A stretch of DNA of 64,000 nucleotides from Bacilli bacterium (GTDB taxonomy: Bacteria > Bacillota_I > Bacilli_A > RF39 > UBA660): NCBI GenBank assembly GCA_046704245.1, contig JBJKSD010000019.1:11708-75707 (forward strand), in the 5' to 3' direction. The notes under the pieces are model-generated. The model was not told the origin of the DNA and did not search any database. It worked only from the letters and a program-made list of their open reading frames with translations. The position numbers were made by a program, and so were the translations under genes. Each line of letters starts with the position of its first letter. Position 1 is the first letter of the stretch. Shown here in pieces: positions 1,646 to 24,590 of the stretch.

Positions 1646-1719
1646 GGGGCTGTAGCCAAGTGGTAAGGCATGGGACTGCAACTCCCTGAGCATCGGTTCA
1701 AATCCGTTCGGCCCCTCCA
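1646..1719 (+). tRNA. tRNA-Cys (GCA)
   Basis: 74-nt cloverleaf. Acceptor GGGGCTG/CGGCCCC, T-loop TTCAAAT, anticodon loop CTGCAAC with GCA, encoded CCA end. Confidence 0.85.
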
Positions 1720-3851: not shown

Positions 3852-3925
3852 GCAGATGTGGTTCAATGGTAGAATGTCACCTTGCCAAGGTGAAGACGCG
3901 GGTTCGATTCCCGTCATTTGCTCCA
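3852..3925 (+). tRNA. tRNA-Gly (GCC)
   Basis: Acceptor GCAGATG/CATTTGC, anticodon stem TCACC/GGTGA with loop TTGCCAA, T-loop TTCGATT, encoded CCA. Confidence 0.85.
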
Positions 3926-4730: not shown

Positions 4731-5339
4731 ATGGGGAAATTTTCTAATATATTAACTATGCTAGAGTTATTAAGTAATGGTCAGAAATATAGCATTAAAG
4801 AATTAAGTGAACGTTTAGAAGTAACTAATAGAATGATACGTGTTTATAAAGAAGAATTAGAGATAGCTGGTATTTATATTGATACTATTAGAGGGCCTTA
4901 TGGAGGGTATGTATTAAATAATAGTTCATTATTACCACCAAGAAATTTTAGTAAATATGATATTGATCTACTTAAAAATATAAATAATTTAGTTAAAGAT
5001 AGACTAGATAAACGTTTACAATTAGAATATAATGCTTTGATTGATAAAGTCCAAGGTCTATATCAAGGTACGAAGAAAAAAAGTAATAATATGGTAATTA
5101 ATGATGATGAAAAAGAAAAATATAATGTGTTATCTAAAGCCATTAAAGAAAAACGAAAAGTATTGATTAACTTTTTATCAGCTGATGGTATTACTATAGA
5201 AAGAATTATTCATCCTAGTAATATATATCTATATAATGATTCATGGTATGTCGCAACATATTGTGAATTGAGAAGCGATATGAGACATTTTAGATTAGCT
5301 AGAATAATTGATTATAAACTTCTTGATCAGAAATATTAG
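4731..5339 (+). CDS. HTH-WYL domain transcriptional regulator (YafY-like)
   Basis: N-terminal DeoR-like HTH (ILTMLELLSNGQKYSIKELSERLEVTNRMIRVY) and a C-terminal WYL-like segment (SWYVATYCELRSDMRHFRLARI). Confidence 0.55.
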   Translation: MGKFSNILTMLELLSNGQKYSIKELSERLEVTNRMIRVYKEELEIAGIYIDTIRGPYGGYVLNNSSLLPPRNFSKYDIDLLKNINNLVKDRLDKRLQLEYNALIDKVQGLYQGTKKKSNNMVINDDEKEKYNVLSKAIKEKRKVLINFLSADGITIERIIHPSNIYLYNDSWYVATYCELRSDMRHFRLARIIDYKLLDQKY

Positions 5340-5412: not shown

Positions 5413-5991
5413 ATGAAAGAAATAGTATTTGTTACCAGTAATGAAGGGAAGGTTAAATCGGCGCAAAAATATTTTAAAGACATTAGCTTAATACCTTATA
5501 ATTATGAATTAATTGAACCTAGAAGTGATGATATAGAAGAAATAGCAATATCAAAAGTAAAACAAGCTTATGATTTGGTACAACAACCATGTATAGCAGT
5601 AGATGCTGGTTTTTATATTAAGGCTATAAATAATTTTCCTAGAGCTAATGTGAATTTTATTTTAAAGACTATAGGGCTTAAGGGCATCTTAAAATTAATG
5701 GTTGGTATAGAAGATAGAGATTGTTATTTTGCTCAATGTTTAGCGTATTACGATGGAAAAGAAATTAAATGTTTTTATAATGAGAATCACGGCCAATTAG
5801 CTACTGAAATTAGACAGGGTAATTCAGAGTATAAATGGTCAGAATTATGGCATATTTTTATTCCTAATAATTGTGATAAGACTTTATGTGAAATGTCTAA
5901 CGGTGAAAGAACACAAGCTAATTCTGATAGTATATCCGTTTTTCAACAATTTGCTGACTGGTATAAAACCCCATACGTTAAAACAAAATAA
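5413..5991 (+). CDS. Ham1/RdgB-like non-canonical purine NTP pyrophosphatase
   Basis: N-terminus IVFVTSNEGKV (cf. RdgB VLATGNxGKV) and a later VDAGF (cf. ADDSGL) pattern. Confidence 0.5.
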   Translation: MKEIVFVTSNEGKVKSAQKYFKDISLIPYNYELIEPRSDDIEEIAISKVKQAYDLVQQPCIAVDAGFYIKAINNFPRANVNFILKTIGLKGILKLMVGIEDRDCYFAQCLAYYDGKEIKCFYNENHGQLATEIRQGNSEYKWSELWHIFIPNNCDKTLCEMSNGERTQANSDSISVFQQFADWYKTPYVKTK

Positions 5992-6068: not shown

Positions 6069-6752
6069 ATGTATATGGAAAAAATTATAAAGGGATTAAA
6101 TGCCATTATAATTGCTATTTGTTCATTTATTATTATAGTCAATCTAATTCATTATTTTCAGGTTAGATATTCTAAAGAAGTAGTTTTTAGTGATAATAAT
6201 AAAATATACAAAGAAACATTAGATGATATTGATAATAATTTAGATAAATTTGATCTAACTAATTATAATGGTAAATTAACTAAAGGATTTTTAAATGATG
6301 TATACGCTAATCTTAATAACTGTTTAGTTAAATTAAAAGCTATGACTTTCTTAGATTATACAGGTACAAAAAGAGTAAATATTAAGGATATTGCTAGAAT
6401 GTATAATAATTATATTGCTAATGAATGTAGTGAAGAAATGCGTTGGTTTTATGACCTAAATGATAGTAAAGATTATACTAGTTTAGATAGAGCGCAGTTT
6501 ACTAAAATAGCTCCATATATTCAAAAGTTCACTTATTTATATTTATTTGCGGGTCCAGATACTTGGGAATATTTGATTGAAAATAGCCACTACTATTTAC
6601 ATTTATATAGTTATCCTAATTATGCTCCTGGTACAGATCCATTAGCATCTAATTACTGGCAAATGCTCTATGCAAGTAGTAGAGAAGCAGATGTTATAGA
6701 AGAATTATCAGATTGGTTATTAGATGAAATCGGTGGTGGTAATAATGAATAA
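6069..6752 (+). CDS. hypothetical membrane-anchored protein
   Basis: 227-aa ORF with an N-terminal TM helix. No recognisable family. Confidence 0.4.
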   Translation: MYMEKIIKGLNAIIIAICSFIIIVNLIHYFQVRYSKEVVFSDNNKIYKETLDDIDNNLDKFDLTNYNGKLTKGFLNDVYANLNNCLVKLKAMTFLDYTGTKRVNIKDIARMYNNYIANECSEEMRWFYDLNDSKDYTSLDRAQFTKIAPYIQKFTYLYLFAGPDTWEYLIENSHYYLHLYSYPNYAPGTDPLASNYWQMLYASSREADVIEELSDWLLDEIGGGNNE

Positions 6753-7146
6753 AAAATTATATTTAATACGTAATATATTATTTTGTATAGTAACATTACC
6801 AGTATTATATCTATTACTATTTGTTGATATTTGGATTCTCTATGCTAATTTTGCTATTATGCTTATTGTCTTATTATTAGTAGCACTAGTAATTATTAAT
6901 AATGTTAAGAAACAAGCTAAAGTAAAATATAATAGAATGTATAATAAAATATTTTCACTAGCCATGTTAAGTATTTTCGTCATAGTCATGCGCGCTTTCT
7001 TTGATTCATTTCTAATGATGAGATATGAAGGCAATATTCGATTTGATGAAATATATTTTTCTAACAATGCTTTATTGATAGGTAGTTTATATTTCTTACT
7101 ATCAATATATAATATTTTACTAATGTATAAAAAAGGGCAAGAATAA
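6724..7146 (+). CDS. hypothetical integral membrane protein
   Basis: 140-aa protein with 3-4 predicted TM helices. Overlaps the upstream ORF (operon). Confidence 0.4.
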   Translation: MKSVVVIMNKKLYLIRNILFCIVTLPVLYLLLFVDIWILYANFAIMLIVLLLVALVIINNVKKQAKVKYNRMYNKIFSLAMLSIFVIVMRAFFDSFLMMRYEGNIRFDEIYFSNNALLIGSLYFLLSIYNILLMYKKGQE

Positions 7147-7212: not shown

Positions 7213-7695
7213 ATGAAAAAGAGACAAGATTATATTAGTTGGGATGAATACTTTATGGGTATAGCTTTATTATCTGCTGAAAGAAGTAAAGATCCATCAA
7301 CACAAGTAGGAGCATGTATAGTAAGCGAAGATAATAAAATATTATCTATTGGTTATAATGGGGCTCCAATTGGATATAGTGATGATAAAATGAGTTGGGC
7401 TAGAGAAGGGGAATTTTTAGATACTAAATATCCTTATGTTGTTCATGCTGAATTAAATGCTATTTTAAATTATACTGGATCAACACTAAAAGGTTCTAGA
7501 ATATATGTGGCTTTATTTCCATGTAATGAATGTGCCAAAGCTATTATTCAATCAGGAATAAAAGAAGTGATATATTTATCTGATAAATATGCTGATAGTG
7601 ATAATACCAAGGCATCTAAAAAGATGTTTGATGAGTGTCGAGTAAAATATGCGCAATATAAAAAAACTTATCGTAAAATAAAAATAGAATTATAA
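7213..7695 (+). CDS. comEB: dCMP deaminase (ComEB family cytidine/deoxycytidylate deaminase)
   Basis: Zinc-binding motifs HAELNAI and PCNECAKAI. 160 aa. Confidence 0.8.
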
Positions 7696-7858
7696 TAGGA
7701 GGATAGTATGGATAAAGATCGATTTTACTAGAATTTGGGTGAAGTAGAAAAAGCTTATCAGAAGGTATATAAAAGTATTAAAGGTTCTAAATAAAATAGA
7801 TAAGTAATATTGACAATATTATAAAATTAGGTATAATTAAAAATGCCTACTTTTTAAT

Positions 7859-7932
7859 GCGGATGTAGTTTAGTGGTAGAACCTCAGCCTTCCAAGCTGA
7901 CTGCGAGGGTTCGATTCCCTTCATCCGCTCCA
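7859..7932 (+). tRNA. tRNA-Gly (UCC)
   Basis: Acceptor GCGGATG/CATCCGC, anticodon loop CTTCCAA (TCC), T-loop TTCGATT, CCA encoded. A terminator hairpin lies at 7946-7969. Confidence 0.85.
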
Positions 7933-7941
7933 TTAATTTAA

Positions 7942-7976
7942 AAATACTGTTTTTCTAATGAAAGACAGTTTTTTTG
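7942..7976 (+). terminator. Rho-independent terminator after tRNA-Gly (ACTGTTTTTCTAATGAAAGACAGT plus T7)
   Basis: Inverted repeat followed by a T-run, seen directly. Confidence 0.55.
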
Positions 7977-7995: not shown

Positions 7996-8502
7996 ATGTC
8001 ATATAGAGAATATGATGATTTATATGAGAAAGCTCAACAAAAAGGAAAATATCGTATGTTTTCTTTTGACATGGTAAATAGTAAAAGAATAGGTGTTAAT
8101 AGAAAATATATTCAACTATTAACTATTAAAGCAATATTAAATGTTTATAATAGATTAAAATGTTTAGAAGAACAATTAAATAGAAAAATTCTACATACTA
8201 ATGATAATTTTTTTTCATTTGATGATATACCTTCTTCTGGTCAAATGATTAGTTATTTCATGGAGCCATTTAATATGGGAGACCAATTTGGTTTTACTAT
8301 TATAAATAATAGTATTGAATCAGAATTAGTTTATAAAATATGGCAAGAAGAAAAAGAAAAAGTTGGTTTAAAAGTTAAATTTCATTATGCTGATGTATTA
8401 TATGAAACAGATAATTATGAACAAGGTAATGAATTATATTTTAGGGGTTATTGTATATCTAAAGTTGAAGAGGTTAGTAAACAGAAAAAGAAAACTTTTT
8501 AA
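7996..8502 (+). CDS. hypothetical protein
   Basis: 168-aa ORF. No recognisable motifs. Confidence 0.4.
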   Translation: MSYREYDDLYEKAQQKGKYRMFSFDMVNSKRIGVNRKYIQLLTIKAILNVYNRLKCLEEQLNRKILHTNDNFFSFDDIPSSGQMISYFMEPFNMGDQFGFTIINNSIESELVYKIWQEEKEKVGLKVKFHYADVLYETDNYEQGNELYFRGYCISKVEEVSKQKKKTF

Positions 8503-8562
8503 AAATGTGTTTTCTTTTTATTTTAATTATATTGTAAACCCTTCACTGGTGTGCTATTATAA

Positions 8563-10281
8563 ATGGAAAAAGTTGATGAAGAGGTTTTTATGTTAAAAGA
8601 GATTAAGATAGAAGTAACTGATTTATGTGATCGCTTTTGTAAACATTGTTCTAGTAATGCTACATATAAACGTGATAATTATCAAAGTTTATCATGTGTT
8701 TTAGTTTATCGAATTATTGATGAAGCTAGTCAAATGGGAGTAGAAAGTATAGCTTTTACAGGTGGTGAAGCTACTTTATGGCCTTATTTAATTGATGCTA
8801 TTAAGTATGCAACTAATAAAGGAATTGAAACTAAATTATATACGATGTGTTATCGTACTGATAGTAATCTAGAGTTATTAGAACAATTAGTAAATAATGG
8901 TCTTAGTGAAATTATTTATTCTACTACAGCTGATGATTTAGCAGTAGAAGATACAATTTCTATATATTCTATAGTATCTTTTATGGAAAAGTTACAATCT
9001 AGGGTTGATTTTAAATTAAGTTTTCATCATGTTATTACTGCTGAAACACTTACTAAAATAGATGATGTATGCCATATATACGATGAATTATCTACTAATA
9101 GTAAATTTAAAGGTAAGATAGGTTTTTTAAGATTTGTACCTCATGGTAGAGGAACAATGGACTTAATATTAAATAAAAAACAATGGTATAACTTTAGAAA
9201 TAAAATTATTCAATTAAGAGAAAAATATGGCGATAATCATATTAAAATTGGATCACCTCATAATCCATTATGTATATCTCATTCTGAATGTACAGCTGCT
9301 GATGAAACAATGATAATTGGTTTTAATGGCGAAGCTTATCCATGTGATGCAATGAAATATTTTGAAGCTGTTGGTTTGGGTGGTAATATCTATGAAAAAA
9401 GTCTAATAGATATCTATAATTCTTTATATTTTAAAAAAGTAAGAAATGTTAAAGTATATGTCAGTGAACAATGTAAGAAATGTAATGGTTTTACTATTTG
9501 TAAAGGTGGATGTTTGGGGCAAAAAATAATCTATTGTTTTAATCCAGATCGGTTAAAAACTTTTGAATGGTATCAAACTAATGCCAAAAGATCGATGAAT
9601 AATTTTAATAATGAAGAAATGATTATTAATGCTGAGATGGGATTAAGCGGGGAAACGGGAGCTTTAATAGATGATCTAAAAAGAGAATATACGCATAGTT
9701 TAACAGCAGAATATAAAGCTTTACTACGCGATAAGATGGCTACTAAAGTTGGAGATATAATATGGTATATAGCAGCACCATTATGTTCACAGTATAATTT
9801 AACGTTAGATGAAATTGTCGATAATATACTAAATAAACCACCACAAGGCCCATATTTATTATGTGATAATGATTTAGTTAAACATTGTGCTAAACAACCA
9901 GATCCTATTTGTATAAAAGATTATAATAGAGGTAAAAACAAGATAGTAGACTTTGATAAGTATATTGAAGATCAAGATCAAGCATTTGACCCTAAAACTA
10001 AGTGGAAAGAAATTGATGATATGTCATATCTACTACGAAATACTGATGGTAGTAGAGAAGAAGTAATAAAAAGAGCAGGAGCATTATTAATAACATTAAC
10101 CCGATTTTCTCATCGTCATTTAGGGGTATCTTTACAAGAAGTTTTAACGCAAAACGTTATCAAGTTGCAAAAACGTTATCCAACTGGTTTTAATGATGAA
10201 GTAGCAAATAGAAGAGTCAAAAGAGAAATAGAACAAAAATTAAGTGAAGAAGTAAAACCTAAAACCTTAGTATTAAATTAA
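8563..10281 (+). CDS. radical SAM / SPASM-domain protein fused to two MazG-like nucleotide pyrophosphohydrolase-type helical repeats
   Basis: The radical SAM cluster is CDRFCKHC (CxxxCxxC). The auxiliary-cluster region is CDAMKYF...CKKCNGFTICKGGC, which is SPASM/twitch-like. The C-terminal ~200 aa contain MazG-like motifs (GLSGETGALIDDLKRE...GDIIWYIAAPL and a second repeat EEVIKRAGALLITLTRFSHRHLGVSLQEVLTQNVIKLQKRY). The start may instead be the internal ATG at 8590 (MLKEIKIEV). Confidence 0.6.
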   Translation: MEKVDEEVFMLKEIKIEVTDLCDRFCKHCSSNATYKRDNYQSLSCVLVYRIIDEASQMGVESIAFTGGEATLWPYLIDAIKYATNKGIETKLYTMCYRTDSNLELLEQLVNNGLSEIIYSTTADDLAVEDTISIYSIVSFMEKLQSRVDFKLSFHHVITAETLTKIDDVCHIYDELSTNSKFKGKIGFLRFVPHGRGTMDLILNKKQWYNFRNKIIQLREKYGDNHIKIGSPHNPLCISHSECTAADETMIIGFNGEAYPCDAMKYFEAVGLGGNIYEKSLIDIYNSLYFKKVRNVKVYVSEQCKKCNGFTICKGGCLGQKIIYCFNPDRLKTFEWYQTNAKRSMNNFNNEEMIINAEMGLSGETGALIDDLKREYTHSLTAEYKALLRDKMATKVGDIIWYIAAPLCSQYNLTLDEIVDNILNKPPQGPYLLCDNDLVKHCAKQPDPICIKDYNRGKNKIVDFDKYIEDQDQAFDPKTKWKEIDDMSYLLRNTDGSREEVIKRAGALLITLTRFSHRHLGVSLQEVLTQNVIKLQKRYPTGFNDEVANRRVKREIEQKLSEEVKPKTLVLN

Positions 10282-10310
10282 AAAAGAATATAAAATATAT
10301 TCTTTTTTTG
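10281..10310 (+). terminator. Rho-independent terminator (AGAATATAAAATATATTCT plus T7)
   Basis: Inverted repeat and T-run. Confidence 0.5.
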
Positions 10311-10329
10311 TGCTATAATATCAATATAA

Positions 10330-10677
10330 TTGGAGGCAGCAATGAAGACTGAAGATTATTTAAATAAGATGGTAAATGTTATAATTGAAAGACCAATTGA
10401 TAGTATCCATCCAGATAAAGGGTTTAAATACCTAGTTAATTATGGATATATACCTAATACTATAGGTCGTGATGGTGAAGCTATCGATGCCTATATATTA
10501 GGAATAGATAAACCGATAAAAGAATATAAAGGTAAATGTATTGCGATTATTAAACGATTAGATGATGAAGATGATAAATTAATAGTGGTGCCAATTGATA
10601 AAGATTATACCAATGAAGAGATAATAAAAGCTATTAATTTTAGAGAAAAAGAATATAAATCTGAATTAATTAGATAA
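10330..10677 (+). CDS. short family-I inorganic pyrophosphatase-like protein
   Basis: NYGYIPNTIGRDGEAIDAYILG resembles the PPase core NYGYI..T...DGDP.DVLV. The ORF is only 115 aa, shorter than canonical Ppa. Confidence 0.5.
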   Translation: MEAAMKTEDYLNKMVNVIIERPIDSIHPDKGFKYLVNYGYIPNTIGRDGEAIDAYILGIDKPIKEYKGKCIAIIKRLDDEDDKLIVVPIDKDYTNEEIIKAINFREKEYKSELIR

Positions 10678-11707: not shown

Positions 11708-12304
11708 ATGGGAGGAATATTTATGTTAGATAATATCAAGAAAGTAATACCTAATATTATCACAACGATTAGATTATTATTAGCACTAAGTATTCCCTTT
11801 ATATTCTTACAAGGGTATATTAAATTATCGATTGTTATTTTTATAATAGCTGCTTTAAGTGATGCTTTAGATGGTTATTTAGCTAGAAAATGGAATACTA
11901 TTTCCATGTATGGTAAAATAATTGATCCACTAGCTGATAAATTCTTAAGTATCGGGATCTTAATTCTTATTGCTATCAAAATTAATCCTATTTTATTTAT
12001 ACCATTATTGATGGAAGCCTTTATTATGGCTATAGCATTAGTTACTTATAGAAGTAGTCGTAAAATAGATATTGAAATTATAGGTAAAATAAAGACTGGA
12101 GTATTATTTCCAACAGTAGCTATTGGGTTAATTTCTTATCTTTATCCAACATGGGAAATAGCTATAGCACCTCTAATAGGAATTACTGCTATATTACAAA
12201 TATTAGCTATAAGAGAATATGCTAAAAGGTTATTTTATACGAGAGATGATCAAACTATTATTATTGAAGAAGATCAAACAATAACTATAGTTGATAAACA
12301 ATAG
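11708..12304 (+). CDS. pgsA: CDP-alcohol phosphatidyltransferase (PgsA-like)
   Basis: DALDGYLARKWN...GKIIDPLADK matches the CDP-OH phosphotransferase motif D-x2-DG-x2-AR...G-x3-D-x3-D. Confidence 0.7.
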   Translation: MGGIFMLDNIKKVIPNIITTIRLLLALSIPFIFLQGYIKLSIVIFIIAALSDALDGYLARKWNTISMYGKIIDPLADKFLSIGILILIAIKINPILFIPLLMEAFIMAIALVTYRSSRKIDIEIIGKIKTGVLFPTVAIGLISYLYPTWEIAIAPLIGITAILQILAIREYAKRLFYTRDDQTIIIEEDQTITIVDKQ

Positions 12305-13872: not shown

Positions 13873-14697
13873 ATGGAAATAAAACATGTTAGTCAATTAA
13901 AAGGCTATATGCGACAAGAAACAAAGGCTTTAAAGATTAATAGCATTTCGGGTTATACATATTATTTTTGTAGACAGTTTTTAGAACGACTATATAAAAC
14001 AACCCCTGATTATTTTGTTTTAGCTGGTTCGTTTGCTCAGTTTGCCTATACGGGTGTAACTAGACCTCTCACTGATATAGATGCTTGTAGTAAAACCGTA
14101 GAAGAAGGGCTTGATCTTATTAGGTTAGCTATTGATGATAGCAAACGTGATCCTATATCTTTTTCATTAAAAGAGATATTTATTACAACAAACGATACAG
14201 CGTGTTTAAGGATATTGTGTAATTTTGAACATATGCAACATGCAATTGGTTTAGATATTAAAGCAGAACCTTATTATTCTTTAAATAGAAGACAATTGCC
14301 AGTTCTATTTAGTCAAGATAAACCTGTAGAAGTTAATGTTATTAGTTTAGAAGAACACATGGCTAGGAAATTAATGAGTGTATGTATACGATTACAATTA
14401 TATAAGAATGGTAAAAAGTTTAAAAGATTTAAGGATTTTTATGACATAGATGATATGGTTAAACACTCAAACTTAGATATGGATGAAGTAATAAGATATG
14501 CGGCCCTTTTTAATGAAAAGGAACAAATTAATATTGAACCAGAGATATTAGATGAAGATTTTATGGTAAAAAATCAATCAATATGGGAAGCAGAGGCAAA
14601 AGAATATCAATTTAAAGATCCTAATTTTGTTGCAACAGTAACATGTGTTAAAAATTTATTAGAGCAAATAGCTATTAATCAAAAGAAAACAAGATAA
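13873..14697 (+). CDS. nucleotidyltransferase of the AbiEii/DUF1814-like family (orphan)
   Basis: YFVLAGSFAQFAYTGVTRPLTDIDAC resembles the AbiEii NTase motif (GG.A....G..R.T.DID). No AbiEi-like partner is adjacent. Confidence 0.35.
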   Translation: MEIKHVSQLKGYMRQETKALKINSISGYTYYFCRQFLERLYKTTPDYFVLAGSFAQFAYTGVTRPLTDIDACSKTVEEGLDLIRLAIDDSKRDPISFSLKEIFITTNDTACLRILCNFEHMQHAIGLDIKAEPYYSLNRRQLPVLFSQDKPVEVNVISLEEHMARKLMSVCIRLQLYKNGKKFKRFKDFYDIDDMVKHSNLDMDEVIRYAALFNEKEQINIEPEILDEDFMVKNQSIWEAEAKEYQFKDPNFVATVTCVKNLLEQIAINQKKTR

Positions 14698-14813
14698 TTT
14701 ACACAAATGTAAATTAAATGACAAAGGTTGACAAAAAAAGATACTCATATAGAGTATCTTTTTTATGTCGAATAATTTAAATGTTAAAAAAATATAATGG
14801 TATAGATTAAGAG

Positions 14814-15746
14814 GTGTATATGAAAATTAAAATTGGGATACCTAGAGCATTTCTATATTATAAATATAAAGATTTATGGATAACTTTTTTTAAAGAGTTA
14901 GATTGTGAAATTATTTTAAGCCCTGAATCTAATAAAGAAATATTAAAAAAGGGAATAGAATATTCGATTGATGAAAGTTGTTTATCATCTAAAATATATA
15001 TGGGACATATTTATTCTTTAATAGGTAAAGTAGATTATATATTGGTACCAAGATTTTGTAATTTTGGATTTAAAGAAACTGTATGTACTAAGTTTAATGC
15101 TATGTACGATATAGTAAAGAATACTTTTAAAGAGATTAAGATAATTAATTATGATGTTGATGTTTTAAAAAGACGAACTGAATTTAAAGGCTTTATTAAG
15201 ATGGGTTTAAAGTTAAAGAAAAATATTTTTAAAATAGTGATAGCTTACATAAAAGCTAGAAAAAAATATCGTGACAAGATAGTTAAAAATTATTTAGAAC
15301 AACACCAATTAATTAATAATAATAAATTAAAAATGTTAATAGTATCACACCCTTATAATAGTTATGATAAATTAACTGGTTTTCCCATTATTAAATATTT
15401 AAAAGAATTAGATATCTTACCTATATATGCTGATCTAGCTCCTGAAGAAGAATGTATTATAAGATCTAAATTAATAACTAGTACTTTACAGTGGACCTAT
15501 AGTAAACATTTAATTGGAGCTATTGATTATTATAGAGATAAAATAGATGGTATTATTTTTATTTCAACTTTTCCTTGTGGACCTGATTCGTTAGTTAATG
15601 AATTATGTATTAGAAAAATAAAAGATCTACCTATTTTAAATATTGTCTTAGATGAATTACAGAGTGAAGTAGGATTACAGACGAGAATTGAAAGCTTTAT
15701 TGATATTATAAATGCTAAAAAGAAAAGGAATATGATATATGAATAA
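14814..15746 (+). CDS. CoA-substrate-specific enzyme activase-associated protein (DUF2229-like)
   Basis: First gene of a three-gene set that ends in a BadF/BcrA/HgdC-type ATPase. The FISTFPCGPDS motif is typical of the activase-associated domain. Confidence 0.45.
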   Translation: MYMKIKIGIPRAFLYYKYKDLWITFFKELDCEIILSPESNKEILKKGIEYSIDESCLSSKIYMGHIYSLIGKVDYILVPRFCNFGFKETVCTKFNAMYDIVKNTFKEIKIINYDVDVLKRRTEFKGFIKMGLKLKKNIFKIVIAYIKARKKYRDKIVKNYLEQHQLINNNKLKMLIVSHPYNSYDKLTGFPIIKYLKELDILPIYADLAPEEECIIRSKLITSTLQWTYSKHLIGAIDYYRDKIDGIIFISTFPCGPDSLVNELCIRKIKDLPILNIVLDELQSEVGLQTRIESFIDIINAKKKRNMIYE

Positions 15747-16833
15747 GAAAAAAATATTAAGTTTTCCCCATATGGGAAGTTATCATGTACCAATTGCTTT
15801 TTTAGCGACTAATGTCTTTGATATGAAAGTCATGAAAGCACCACCCATTACTAAGAAAACTTTAGAATTAGGTTCTAAATATAGTCCAGATTTTGTATGT
15901 GTACCTTTTAAATATAATTTAGGTAACTTTATTGAAGCTTTAGATAATGGTGCTAATGTATTAGCACAAGCTGTAGGAGGATGTCGCTTTAGTTATTATG
16001 CTGAAGTTCAAGAACAAATATTAAGAGATCTAGGTTATGAATTTGAGTTTGCTAATATTGTACCTCCCAATAAAATTACGCCATTATCTATTTATCATCA
16101 ATTTAAAAAATTAAATCCTAAACTGTCTATTATTCGATTAGCGTATTATTTCTATATTACTTATCGGATGTTTAAGATGATTGAATATATTGAAGATTAT
16201 ATGCGTAAGAATATGGGATTTGAAATAAAGGAGGGGGAATTTGAAGAGCTACATAAAGCTTTTTTAAAAGAATTAGAAACAGTTAAATATAATAAACAAT
16301 TAACTAAAATATATCATAAGTATAAGAAATTATTTAAAGGTATACCTATTGATAAACCTAAGAATTGTATGAAGGTGGGTATTATTGGTGAACTATATAC
16401 GGAGATGGAACAATTTAGTAGTTGTAATATTGAAAAAGAATTAGCCAAGAAAGGGGTAGAGGTTACTAGGATAACCACCATTACTTATTTATTATTTACT
16501 AAACCGCGTAAATTTAAAAAAATATTAAGAAGAGCTAATAAATATTTAAAATATCATATTGGAGCGGATGGTACTGATAGTATTGCGAAATCGATGACTT
16601 TTGTAAAAGAAGGCTACGATGGTATTATTCATTCTAAACCTTTTGCGTGTACCCCCGAAGTAAATGCTATGCCCATGTTACAAAATTTAAGTAAGGATTA
16701 TAATATTCCTATTCTATATTTTAGTTTTGATTCACAGACTGCTGAGGGAGGTGTCATAACTCGATTAGAAGCTTTCTATGACATGTTAAAGATGAGAAGG
16801 GAGAAATATGAAAAGAGCTTATTTAGGGGTTGA
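15739..16833 (+). CDS. 2-hydroxyacyl-CoA dehydratase (HgdB/D-component-like) family protein
   Basis: 364 aa. Its architecture and position between DUF2229 and the activase ATPase are the usual arrangement. No direct catalytic motif was confirmed. Confidence 0.45.
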   Translation: MNKKKILSFPHMGSYHVPIAFLATNVFDMKVMKAPPITKKTLELGSKYSPDFVCVPFKYNLGNFIEALDNGANVLAQAVGGCRFSYYAEVQEQILRDLGYEFEFANIVPPNKITPLSIYHQFKKLNPKLSIIRLAYYFYITYRMFKMIEYIEDYMRKNMGFEIKEGEFEELHKAFLKELETVKYNKQLTKIYHKYKKLFKGIPIDKPKNCMKVGIIGELYTEMEQFSSCNIEKELAKKGVEVTRITTITYLLFTKPRKFKKILRRANKYLKYHIGADGTDSIAKSMTFVKEGYDGIIHSKPFACTPEVNAMPMLQNLSKDYNIPILYFSFDSQTAEGGVITRLEAFYDMLKMRREKYEKSLFRG

Positions 16834-17755
16834 TGTTGGTTCTATATCAACTAAGGGGGTTATTATTGATGATAATAATAATATTCTAGCTGAAGAATAT
16901 TTATGGACTGAAGGTAATCCAATATTAGCAGTACGTAATTTAATTAGGTCATTAAAAGAGCAGATAAATAATATTAAAGTAGTATCAGTAGGTACTACTG
17001 GTTCAGCTAGAAAGTTAATTGGTACAGTACTAGAAGCCCAAGTAATAAAAAACGAAATAACAGCTCATGCAATTGGAACCTTATCGTTATTTCCTGACGT
17101 TAAAACTATTTTTGAAATAGGAGGTCAAGATTCAAAAATAATTCTTATTGATGATGGTATTATTATTGACTATGCAATGAATACTTTATGTGCTGCTGGT
17201 ACAGGATCTTTCTTATCATCACAAGCGAGAAGATTAGGAATAGCAGTAGAAGATTTTGGTAAGTATGCTTTACAAGCTACTAATCCTACTAAGATTGCTG
17301 CTCGTTGTACAGTCTTTGCCGAATCAGATTTAGTTCATAAAATGCAGATGGGACATAATAAAGAAGATATTGTTGCGGGTTTATGTCGAGCCGTCGTAAT
17401 GAATTATTTAAATAATGTCGGTAAAGGTAAGAATATAAAACCACCTATTGTTTTTCAAGGTGGAGTAAGTAAAAATATTGGCGTTATTAAAGCTTTTGAA
17501 GACATAGTGGGTGAAAAAATATATGTCGATAATAAAGGACATCTTATGGGAGCTTTAGGAGTAGCTATTTTAGCCAAGGATTCGCATTTAGTTAAAGATT
17601 TTAAATTTGATATTATCAATATCAAGTTTGAAACAAGAGGGATAGAGTGCCATAAATGCCCTAATAATTGTGAAATAATGTGTGTCTATAAAGATCAAAA
17701 ATTAATAGATGCTTGGGGTAATAGATGTGAAAATGGTACCATAATAAAAGTATAA
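16808..17755 (+). CDS. BadF/BadG/BcrA/BcrD-type ATPase (CoA-enzyme activase, HgdC-like) with a C-terminal Cys-rich tail
   Basis: N-terminal acetate/sugar-kinase-fold motif LGVDVGSISTKGVII, the internal GTTGSARK and AGTGSF motifs of the activase family, and a C-terminal CHKCPNNCEIMC...C cluster. Confidence 0.65.
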   Translation: MKRAYLGVDVGSISTKGVIIDDNNNILAEEYLWTEGNPILAVRNLIRSLKEQINNIKVVSVGTTGSARKLIGTVLEAQVIKNEITAHAIGTLSLFPDVKTIFEIGGQDSKIILIDDGIIIDYAMNTLCAAGTGSFLSSQARRLGIAVEDFGKYALQATNPTKIAARCTVFAESDLVHKMQMGHNKEDIVAGLCRAVVMNYLNNVGKGKNIKPPIVFQGGVSKNIGVIKAFEDIVGEKIYVDNKGHLMGALGVAILAKDSHLVKDFKFDIINIKFETRGIECHKCPNNCEIMCVYKDQKLIDAWGNRCENGTIIKV

Positions 17756-24354: not shown

Positions 24355-24590
24355 ACATAAATAAAGGCGGCGAAATGGCGAGTAATATTAATGATTTAAT
24401 AGAGAGTTCGTGGTTGGTGAAAACGAATAAATAATTAATATGAAAAACACCATGGAGTTATATATTTGAATTAAGTAGGATATATCGGTTAATTACCGTT
24501 ACCAAATAGAGATGTCAGTTCGATAAGAAGGGTGGTACCGCGATTATATTGCCCCTTAATCTAATTGACTTTTTTATTTTTTAGGGAAGA
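24355..24590 (+). promoter_or_regulatory. T-box riboswitch leader upstream of gatCAB-aspS
   Basis: The near-canonical T-box sequence AAGGGTGGTACCGCG is at 24528-24542. An AGAGA element is at 24411-24415, and there is a GNUGA-like GGTGA. A T-run follows at 24568-24582 directly before gatC. Confidence 0.55.

Follow-up and report, generated by a model that had tools for sequence, protein, structure and literature searches.

The question raised by this locus is what a radical S-adenosylmethionine (SAM) enzyme does with a domain, built into its own polypeptide chain, that resembles the MazG-type nucleoside triphosphate pyrophosphohydrolases (NTP-PPases). The gene lies at positions 8590-10281(+) of a 64,000-nucleotide stretch of DNA, referred to below as the window, which covers positions 11,708 to 75,707 of contig JBJKSD010000019.1 (assembly GCA_046704245.1) from an RF39 bacterium of the Bacilli. 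A first-pass annotation had proposed a nucleotide-modifying or nucleotide-sanitising radical SAM enzyme rather than a peptide maturase, assisted by a miniature inorganic pyrophosphatase (PPase) encoded by the next gene. We find good support for an uncharacterised family of three-cluster radical SAM/SPASM proteins in which a 'long' MazG-type module has been grafted into the SPASM end. The relatives all come from gut metagenome-assembled genomes of uncultured 'Bacilli', 'Tenericutes' or 'Bacillales', a few of them evidently mislabelled, and none carries a specific name in the databases.

The gene with its nested module was delimited from the open reading frame (ORF), the starts of its homologs, the ribosome-binding site and an AlphaFold2 model. 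The longest ORF spans 572 codons at 8563-10281(+) without an internal stop, and the residues of the fusion protein are numbered from 8563 throughout. The true start is most likely the ATG at 8590, which gives a protein of 563 aa, since a ribosome-binding site (GAAGAGG, 8578-8584) is located 5 nt 5' of this codon, all homologs share the N-terminus MLKE[IV]KIE, found at M10 of the longest ORF, and the database entry for the exact window protein (P0001) is 563 aa long. In this AT-rich window (about 27% G+C) a promoter-like TTGTAA-17-TATTAT with a TG extension (TGTGCTATTAT) was seen at 8532-8560(+); the evidence for it is weak, as similar sites are no more numerous in the region than expected from shuffling. 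More than 110 database clusters are colinear with the protein over 95-98% of its length at 35-52% identity, which excludes that the ORF consists of two genes with an overlooked stop and bears out the single uninterrupted frame assumed in the first-pass annotation. The AlphaFold2 model of the full-length protein, built from an alignment of 30 sequences, had a predicted local distance difference test score (pLDDT) of 89 and a predicted template modelling score (pTM) of 0.85, indicating that the radical SAM half and the module are fixed relative to each other.

The radical SAM core covers residues ~13-235 (8599-9267(+)) and is identified by a match to the Pfam family Radical_SAM (PF04055; residues 16-118, E 6e-13, 49.7 bits compared to a gathering threshold of 29.5), by invariant cysteines and by Foldseek comparisons. 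The CX3CX2C motif is supplied by CDRFCKHC (nt 8626-8649; C22-x3-C26-x2-C29), starts 13 residues after the probable start codon and is followed by a TGGE SAM-binding motif at residues 66-69. The structural neighbours of the model, in which the core has the partial TIM barrel of the superfamily, were SuiB, PqqE, anSME and SkfB, the first three with E values of 5e-10 to 1e-9 and a probability of 1.00. Downstream of the core, the first six cysteines of a SPASM domain (C243-x12-G-x4-C261...C304-x2-C307-x5-C313-x3-C317) are encoded at 9289-9537(+), as indicated by PF13186 (residues 243-308, E 1.5e-9, 38.5 bits compared to 21.5), by TIGR04085 (39.6 bits, cut-off 27) and by the invariance of the residues. 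Ten cysteines are found in all 110 full-length members (C22, C26, C29, C243, C261, C304, C307, C313, C317 and C450), and together they provide the radical SAM motif and, if C450 is counted as its last member, the seven-cysteine SPASM motif with G256 between the first two. By sequence and predicted fold, the protein is thus a well-supported candidate for a radical SAM/SPASM enzyme of the three-cluster type, in agreement with the earlier proposal of a SPASM-type enzyme with an auxiliary cysteine cluster.

Within the SPASM enzymes, the closest resemblance is to anSME (PDB 4k36-4k39), PqqE, SuiB and MftC, with which the protein shares the CX3CX2C core, the seven-cysteine motif and the fold. anSME was the best match of the family profile in the PDB (E 1.1e-12), and two further features are specifically shared with it: a PCD motif after the second SPASM cysteine, kept throughout the family, and the lack of an N-terminal RiPP recognition element (RRE; RiPP, ribosomally synthesised and post-translationally modified peptide), since no RRE or PqqD-like domain was found in the fusion protein with Pfam or NCBIfam. 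Position 237 aligns with an extra cysteine of anSME, yet it is not conserved in the family, so that auxiliary cluster I would have three cysteine ligands. The protein also differs from the known SPASM enzymes in that it falls far below every curated equivalog cut-off (MftC 69.5 compared to 265 bits, PqqE 60 to 381, anSME 35 to 349), and in having a catalytic-type domain of ~130 aa before the last SPASM cysteine and ~120 aa after it. Matches to prokaryotic viperin (pVip) models in PADLOC were of a generic radical SAM level (38 and 32 bits over the core), and with a SPASM domain present we rejected a role in defence of the viperin kind.

The C-terminal half contains the MazG-type module, which can be divided into two sub-units. 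The first, residues 333-422 (9559-9828(+)), was recognised by phrog_22758 on residues 357-419, by alignment and by its stand-alone relatives, and consists of helix 1 (TFEWYQxNAxRT), helix 2 (G-E364-x-G-[E/A]367-xx-D370-xx-KK-xx-TH) and helix 3 ([E/K]395-x-G-D398-xx-WY). The second, residues 461-561 (9943-10245(+)), ends with the canonical last MazG helix, N531-xx-K534-L-xx-R538-Y-P-x-G-F, followed by a conserved tail with R551. In the window copy the Pfam MazG profile (PF03819) scored 19.8-21.7 bits, just below the gathering threshold of 22, whereas it matched all 21 family members tested (E<=0.01, best 2e-9). Additional support came from the PHROGs family phrog_229, 'MazG-like pyrophosphatase' (E 1.2e-16 on the C-terminal half); the best viral models for the module were phage MazG-type NTP pyrophosphohydrolases of 160-210 aa, the 'long' MazG proteins. 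A fold comparison of residues 326-572 returned dimeric dUTPases, MazG and HisE, which places the region in the all-alpha four-helix-bundle fold of the NTP-PPases. Since a profile of the module gave nothing significant against PDB sequences, the kinship is visible only with the Pfam and PHROG hidden Markov models and in the fold comparison. Both lines show that the fusion of a radical SAM/SPASM enzyme and a MazG-type domain in a single chain, as first annotated, is real.

The likeness to dUTPases is structural only: Pfam dUTPase_2 matched neither the window protein (E<=0.1) nor any of the 21 members (E<=0.01). Compared to MazG, YpjD, HisE, the phage 'long' MazG-like proteins (phrog_229) and the Dut proteins of Campylobacter jejuni (1w2y) and phage (5myd), the fused module differs in two respects: it sits in a radical SAM protein, and the insert between its helices carries a putative iron-sulfur ligand segment (DPxC). 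We searched the module profile against 1.84 billion representative sequences and obtained 2,276 proteins at E<=1e-10, mostly stand-alone and 108-230 aa long, for which NCBIfam provides no name. Those examined have in common the motifs Y-Q-x-A-x-RT, G-x-GE-x-GE-xx-D-xx-KK-xxx-H, E-x-GD-xx-WY and N-xx-KL-xx-RYP-x-GF, and the 'long' stand-alone forms of ~190-212 aa have a helical insert of ~90 aa ahead of the last helix.

The module had been described as a tandem of MazG repeats, represented by GLSGETGALIDDLKRE and GDIIWYIAAPL. These segments correspond to helices 2 and 3 of one and the same unit, with its ExxE and ExxD motifs. The match between the two sub-units in hhalign was weak (31 columns, P 5e-4, probability 31%), and the second carries only the motif of the last MazG helix (NxxKLxxRYPxGF). 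The C-terminal region is therefore best read as one long MazG-type module and not as a clear tandem repeat. One member of 650 aa (P0047; locus L051, 3193-5145) has an extra insertion of ~80 aa in the module between helices 2 and 3, and its gene adjoins a divergently oriented lexA-like gene.

The position of the module within the protein is of particular interest. The segment CAKQxDPxC (residues 438-452, 9874-9918(+)), in which D447, P448 and C450 are invariant in all 110 members, separates the first sub-unit of the module from the second. Stand-alone radical SAM/SPASM homologs of 332-373 aa (P0059, P0071, P0110, P0119 and an ORF in L042) end with the same DPxC, 25-30 aa past the sequence CLGQK ('...CLGQKMITYLSGEEVNGDNVIEYCAKQSDPNC...' in P0071, '...SQRDPRC...' in the L042 ORF). 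A gap of this size is usual before the seventh SPASM cysteine, the corresponding distance in the structure of anSME being 17 residues; the alignments to the SPASM model in these homologs stop short of the DPxC cysteine. In the full-length model the DPxC stretch had a pLDDT of ~88, compared to ~49 when the C-terminal part was modelled alone, consistent with a packing of the segment onto the SPASM domain. We infer that C450 is the seventh and last SPASM cysteine, and that it would ligate auxiliary cluster II. From the invariance of C450, the DPxC ends of the stand-alone orthologs and the difference in pLDDT, the module appears to be inserted around the last SPASM ligand, with its first half before C450 and its second half after it.

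The two halves of the protein are separable in evolution, as shown by radical SAM-only orthologs at the syntenic site and by a module-only gene. P0059 is a radical SAM-only ortholog at the position of the window gene, with a gene for YitT on the opposite strand and genes for CDP-OH_P_transf and DUF2229/HGD-D/BcrAD proteins downstream; a second contig with the same protein has a WYL regulator and a dCMP deaminase upstream. In P0059 a vestige of helix 1 of the module (LTFEQHELNNKRTINKF) runs straight into the CAKQxDPxC segment, suggesting a secondary deletion of the module. The occurrence of such orthologs at the same position implies, as far as can be read from sequence, that the radical SAM half would work alone. 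Conversely, P0246 (222 aa) consists of the module alone, is a close relative of the fused modules and lacks DPxC; no radical SAM gene was found in the available 1.6-5 kb of DNA upstream of its gene, and the contigs end just past it.

The acidic residues of the MazG tetrad bind the catalytic Mg2+ or Mn2+, and the canonical tetrad E364-xx-E367...E395-xx-D398 is present in 106 of the 110 members. Since many other module residues, including R343, N356, K373, H378, W401, Y402 and N531, are invariant as well, both halves of the protein are under selection. The window copy is one of the four exceptions. It reads E364-xx-A367...K395-xx-D398 (E367A at nt 9661-9663 and E395K at nt 9745-9747), which leaves two of the four metal ligands in place. 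The other three have M and K (P0007) or V and K (P0014 and P0021) at positions 367 and 395. The losses are correlated, a change of E367 to A, M or V being paired in all four with a change of E395 to K. In a neighbour-joining tree, inferred without support values, the four sequences belonged to three lineages and were not each other's nearest relatives, falling in a clade of 12 members that includes eight with intact ligands. The correlated loss has therefore probably arisen more than once.

The remainder of the module has been retained in the window copy (R343, N356, D370, K373, H378, W401, Y402, N531, K534 and R538), while P0014 and P0021 show the further losses D370N, K374Q and R551K. As two of the metal-binding acids are replaced, the window copy is probably impaired in hydrolysis, although it may still bind a nucleotide; loss of the ligands with retention of the rest fits a binding role that has outlived hydrolysis. 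By its motifs the family qualifies for the MazG superfamily, in which the window copy is a degenerate member.

Taken together, we propose the following function. The radical SAM half would be the primary and self-sufficient catalyst, cleaving SAM reductively and abstracting a hydrogen atom from its substrate, after which the substrate radical would be oxidised via the auxiliary clusters, as in anSME or BtrN. The module would bind an NTP that the radical SAM half either uses, directly or as the precursor of its substrate, or produces. In ~96% of the members it would also cleave this NTP to the monophosphate (NMP) and inorganic pyrophosphate (PPi), and in the window copy it would probably bind only. 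Both halves would thus jointly process a non-canonical or specialised nucleotide, and the small PPase gene downstream stands outside the system. We place the probability of this reading, that is, radical SAM chemistry similar to that of anSME or BtrN together with a module that binds and mostly hydrolyses a functionally linked NTP, at roughly 40%. More tentative still, and on balance doubtful, is the stricter version of a new nucleotide-directed SPASM enzyme, in which the MazG pocket captures a specific (d)NTP, the three-cluster radical SAM half oxidises or rearranges the nucleotide or the released NMP in a radical reaction not described before, and the hydrolysis-dead copies are 'binder' variants. 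The broader proposal of a nucleotide-modifying or nucleotide-sanitising role, as originally made, is plausible and a reasonable hypothesis.

There are precedents for such a link, although their components differ. OxsB and OxsA of oxetanocin biosynthesis, and MoaA followed by the PPi-releasing MoaC, combine radical SAM chemistry on a nucleoside phosphate with a phosphohydrolase step by which the product is committed or released. The concept is the same as that proposed here, yet these are separate proteins of other families, a B12-dependent radical SAM enzyme and an HD domain protein in the first case and a twitch-type enzyme (MoaA) in the second. No homology to those pairs was found beyond the generic radical SAM core, the matches to MoaA reaching 22-35 bits only. 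The YabN-type fusions of Bacillus subtilis, in which a SAM-dependent methylase is joined to MazG, and the rdgB-hemW pair of Escherichia coli, in which a Ham1-type NTPase is encoded beside a radical SAM protein, likewise connect MazG or Ham1 NTPases with SAM-using enzymes, but the partner families are different. The combination seen here is new, built of known kinds of parts (a SPASM radical SAM enzyme and a MazG NTP-PPase), and is not a new category.

Several observations weigh against a joint action on a nucleotide. Radical SAM/SPASM enzymes are known mainly as maturases of peptides, proteins and cofactors, and the closest solved or curated relatives of the radical SAM half (anSME, PqqE, SuiB and MftC) have, for the most part, protein or peptide substrates. 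Should C450 be a ligand of auxiliary cluster II, the module would, by analogy with the published structures of anSME, be attached at the surface on the electron-exit side and not at the substrate cavity. Neither a curated family in NCBIfam nor, in the 8 million full texts searched, an assay, a substrate or a description of the architecture was found. No neighbour with a role in nucleotide metabolism was conserved beyond lineage-level synteny in the 38 loci for which neighbouring ORFs were clustered all against all. Finally, the existence of radical SAM-only orthologs and stand-alone modules means that the two activities are separable.

The latter point leads to the most serious alternative, namely that one chain carries two activities that have nothing to do with each other: an anSME-like maturase with a protein or cofactor target elsewhere, and an uncoupled house-cleaning NTPase similar to dUTPase or MazG. 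We regard this as possible, though unlikely. It would account for the radical SAM-only orthologs at the syntenic site and the module-only gene elsewhere, for anSME ranking first among the profile matches to the radical SAM half, for the nearest relatives of the module being stand-alone MazG-like proteins (the 2,276 representatives above), and for neighbourhoods that are variable and housekeeping in character. However, the module is not merely appended but encloses an invariant cluster ligand, and the fusion has been kept, with both halves conserved, in at least 110 sequences down to 35% identity. It is also difficult to reconcile with the modules that have lost hydrolysis residues, since these retain the other conserved residues and show no decay.

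Much less probable is that the module regulates or senses, so that a nucleotide gates the radical SAM half or auxiliary cluster II, linked to the module through C450, switches the NTPase on and off according to whether it is intact or to its redox state; with such a switch the protein would be a house-cleaning enzyme sensitive to oxygen or to the state of its iron-sulfur cluster. Such a function would fit a module that is physically stitched to a putative ligand of auxiliary cluster II and that has recurrently lost its catalytic ligands while keeping the fold and the other residues, but the complete catalytic tetrad in 96% of the members argues for real hydrolysis, and we know of no precedent for a coupling of this kind between an NTPase and a cluster in SPASM enzymes.

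Lower again we rank a RiPP or peptide maturase, in which the helical C-terminal region would be a peptide-recognition or scaffold domain with a vestigial likeness to MazG. The top NCBIfam matches of the radical SAM half are indeed the peptide maturases MftC, PqqE and StsB, all far below their cut-offs, and in one lineage an ORF of 32 aa is found directly 3' of the gene (P0115; L006, 9756-9854), which is not conserved elsewhere. Against this, there is no RRE or PqqD domain, the 38 loci contained no conserved small ORF that could encode a precursor and no conserved transporter or protease neighbours, and a MazG catalytic motif present in 106 of the 110 members is hardly vestigial. With these hallmarks of RiPP systems missing, the earlier view that the protein is not a peptide maturase is retained.

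The last alternative concerns the gene downstream, located at 10342-10677(+) and encoding a PPase-like protein, probably of 111 aa if translated from the ATG at 10342 or 115 aa from the TTG at 10330. The assignment as an unusually short PPase-like protein was confirmed: PF00719 matched above the threshold (E 8.4e-10, 39.1 bits compared to 23.5) over profile positions 31-100 of 153, and residues 33-103 matched family I PPases in the PDB, whereas the NCBIfam PPase equivalogs scored only 32 and 27 bits relative to cut-offs of 200 and 246. It belongs to a family of 572 related clusters, mostly of 110-118 aa (members P0121-P0240), and in another genome the gene is located between an unassigned gene and a Sua5/YciO gene. 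For comparison we used the sequence of the E. coli PPase and its active-site residues (E20, K29, E31, R43, Y55, D65, D67, D70, D97, D102, K104, Y141 and K142). The miniature family keeps Y51, Y55, D65, D70, D102 and K104, with E in place of D67, so that its Asp/Glu metal cluster is preserved, but all 60 members aligned are without the segments bearing E31, R43, Y141 and K142. Compared to a family I PPase of ~175 aa, the 111-aa protein has neither the E31/R43 hairpin nor the C-terminal helices bearing Y141 and K142.

The fusion gene and the PPase-like gene share a strand, with 48-60 bp between them. Directly 3' of the stop codon of the fusion gene, at 10280-10309(+), is a terminator-like element consisting of a perfect 13-bp A/U-rich hairpin and a U-run, with a fold energy of -8.8 kcal/mol (z -6.1, none of 200 shuffles as good), although a terminator scanner based on G+C content did not detect it. 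The PPase-like gene has signals of its own, a TGnTATAAT element (TGTGCTATAAT, 10309-10319) and a GGAGG at 10332-10336. Because of the hairpin and these promoter and ribosome-binding signals, the two genes are probably separate transcription units. With two of its metal ligands lost, the window copy of the module may release no PPi at all. The PPase-like gene adjoins the fusion gene in none of 37 further loci, and even the closest relative lacks it at the syntenic locus; it is a chance neighbour, not a conserved partner. The proposal that the fused MazG releases PPi and that the adjacent PPase hydrolyses it to pull the reaction, to which the short distance, the common strand and the PPase-fold match of the neighbour had lent some appeal, is very improbable in view of the 0 of 37 adjacencies, the intervening hairpin and separate signals, the large family in unrelated contexts, the degenerate MazG metal site and the missing segments of the E. 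coli active site.

With the PPase set aside, no conserved operon partner was present in the 38 loci. UPF0029/Impact_N is encoded divergently upstream in 14 of them and UvrC ~1.1 kb downstream in 10, while thioredoxin, RuvX and the other neighbours of the relatives are housekeeping genes; these recurrent neighbours reflect lineage synteny. Further upstream in the window, a WYL/HTH (helix-turn-helix) regulator (4731-5339(+)) and a Ham1/RdgB-type non-canonical purine NTP pyrophosphatase (5413-5991(+)) were identified with Pfam and NCBIfam. The pair recurs upstream of the fusion gene only in the sub-clade of the window (L001 and L009). In two loci the Ham1 gene ends 57 bp before the fusion gene (WYL and Ham1 at 129-722 and 2593-3204 in L047, and at 644-1237 and 3107-3715 in L048), with a BtpA-family gene and a 355-aa gene without assignment between the regulator and Ham1. 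The Ham1/WYL neighbourhood is a thematic hint of nucleotide-pool sanitation that is confined to one sub-clade, and either a regulon or simple synteny could account for it.

The dCMP deaminase gene and the ORF directly 5' of the fusion gene are not conserved partners either. The deaminase (7213-7695(+)) is of the ComEB type (Pfam E 1.2e-27) and also matches the deaminase part of anti-phage dCTP deaminase models (NCBIfam 89 relative to a cut-off of 400); it is probably an ordinary housekeeping enzyme. Two overlapping ORFs of 227 aa and 140 aa (6069-7146(+)), apparently for membrane proteins without family, are inserted between the Ham1 and deaminase genes and absent from related loci, the larger with a weak sub-threshold match to the immunity protein Imm3. 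The ORF 5' of the fusion gene (7996-8502(+), 168 aa) is a near-orphan without a Pfam, PHROG or PADLOC family; a search of 5.8 billion clusters gave a single homolog, 36% identical, whose genomic surroundings are unrelated. Between it and the deaminase gene is a tRNA-Gly(UCC) gene (7859-7932(+)) with a perfect TTGACA-16-TATAAT promoter at 7810-7837 and a terminator at 7946-7969. Elsewhere in the window are genes for tRNA-Cys(GCA) (1646-1719(+)) and tRNA-Gly(GCC) (3852-3925(+)), a T-box leader at 24361-24559(+) (Rfam RF00230, 128 bits) and, at 13873-17755(+), an ORF of 274 aa, the counterpart of which in the syntenic L001 carries Pfam AbiEii, followed by DUF2229, HGD-D and BcrAD_BadFG genes that resemble a 2-hydroxyacyl-CoA-dehydratase cluster and are syntenic with L001 and L049.

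For the annotation of this locus, the results mean that the miniature PPase is placed outside the system and that the MazG site of the window copy is recognised as degenerate. For the family, they suggest that a hydrolase site has repeatedly been turned into what is probably a binding site, and even if the two halves are uncoupled the protein remains a clear case of nested domain insertion. If both halves act on the same molecule, nucleotide chemistry would be added to the repertoire of the SPASM enzymes, and a new nucleotide-pool enzyme to that of uncultured gut Bacilli with reduced genomes. With such an enzyme, these small-genome bacteria could degrade, repair or synthesise a non-canonical nucleotide anaerobically.

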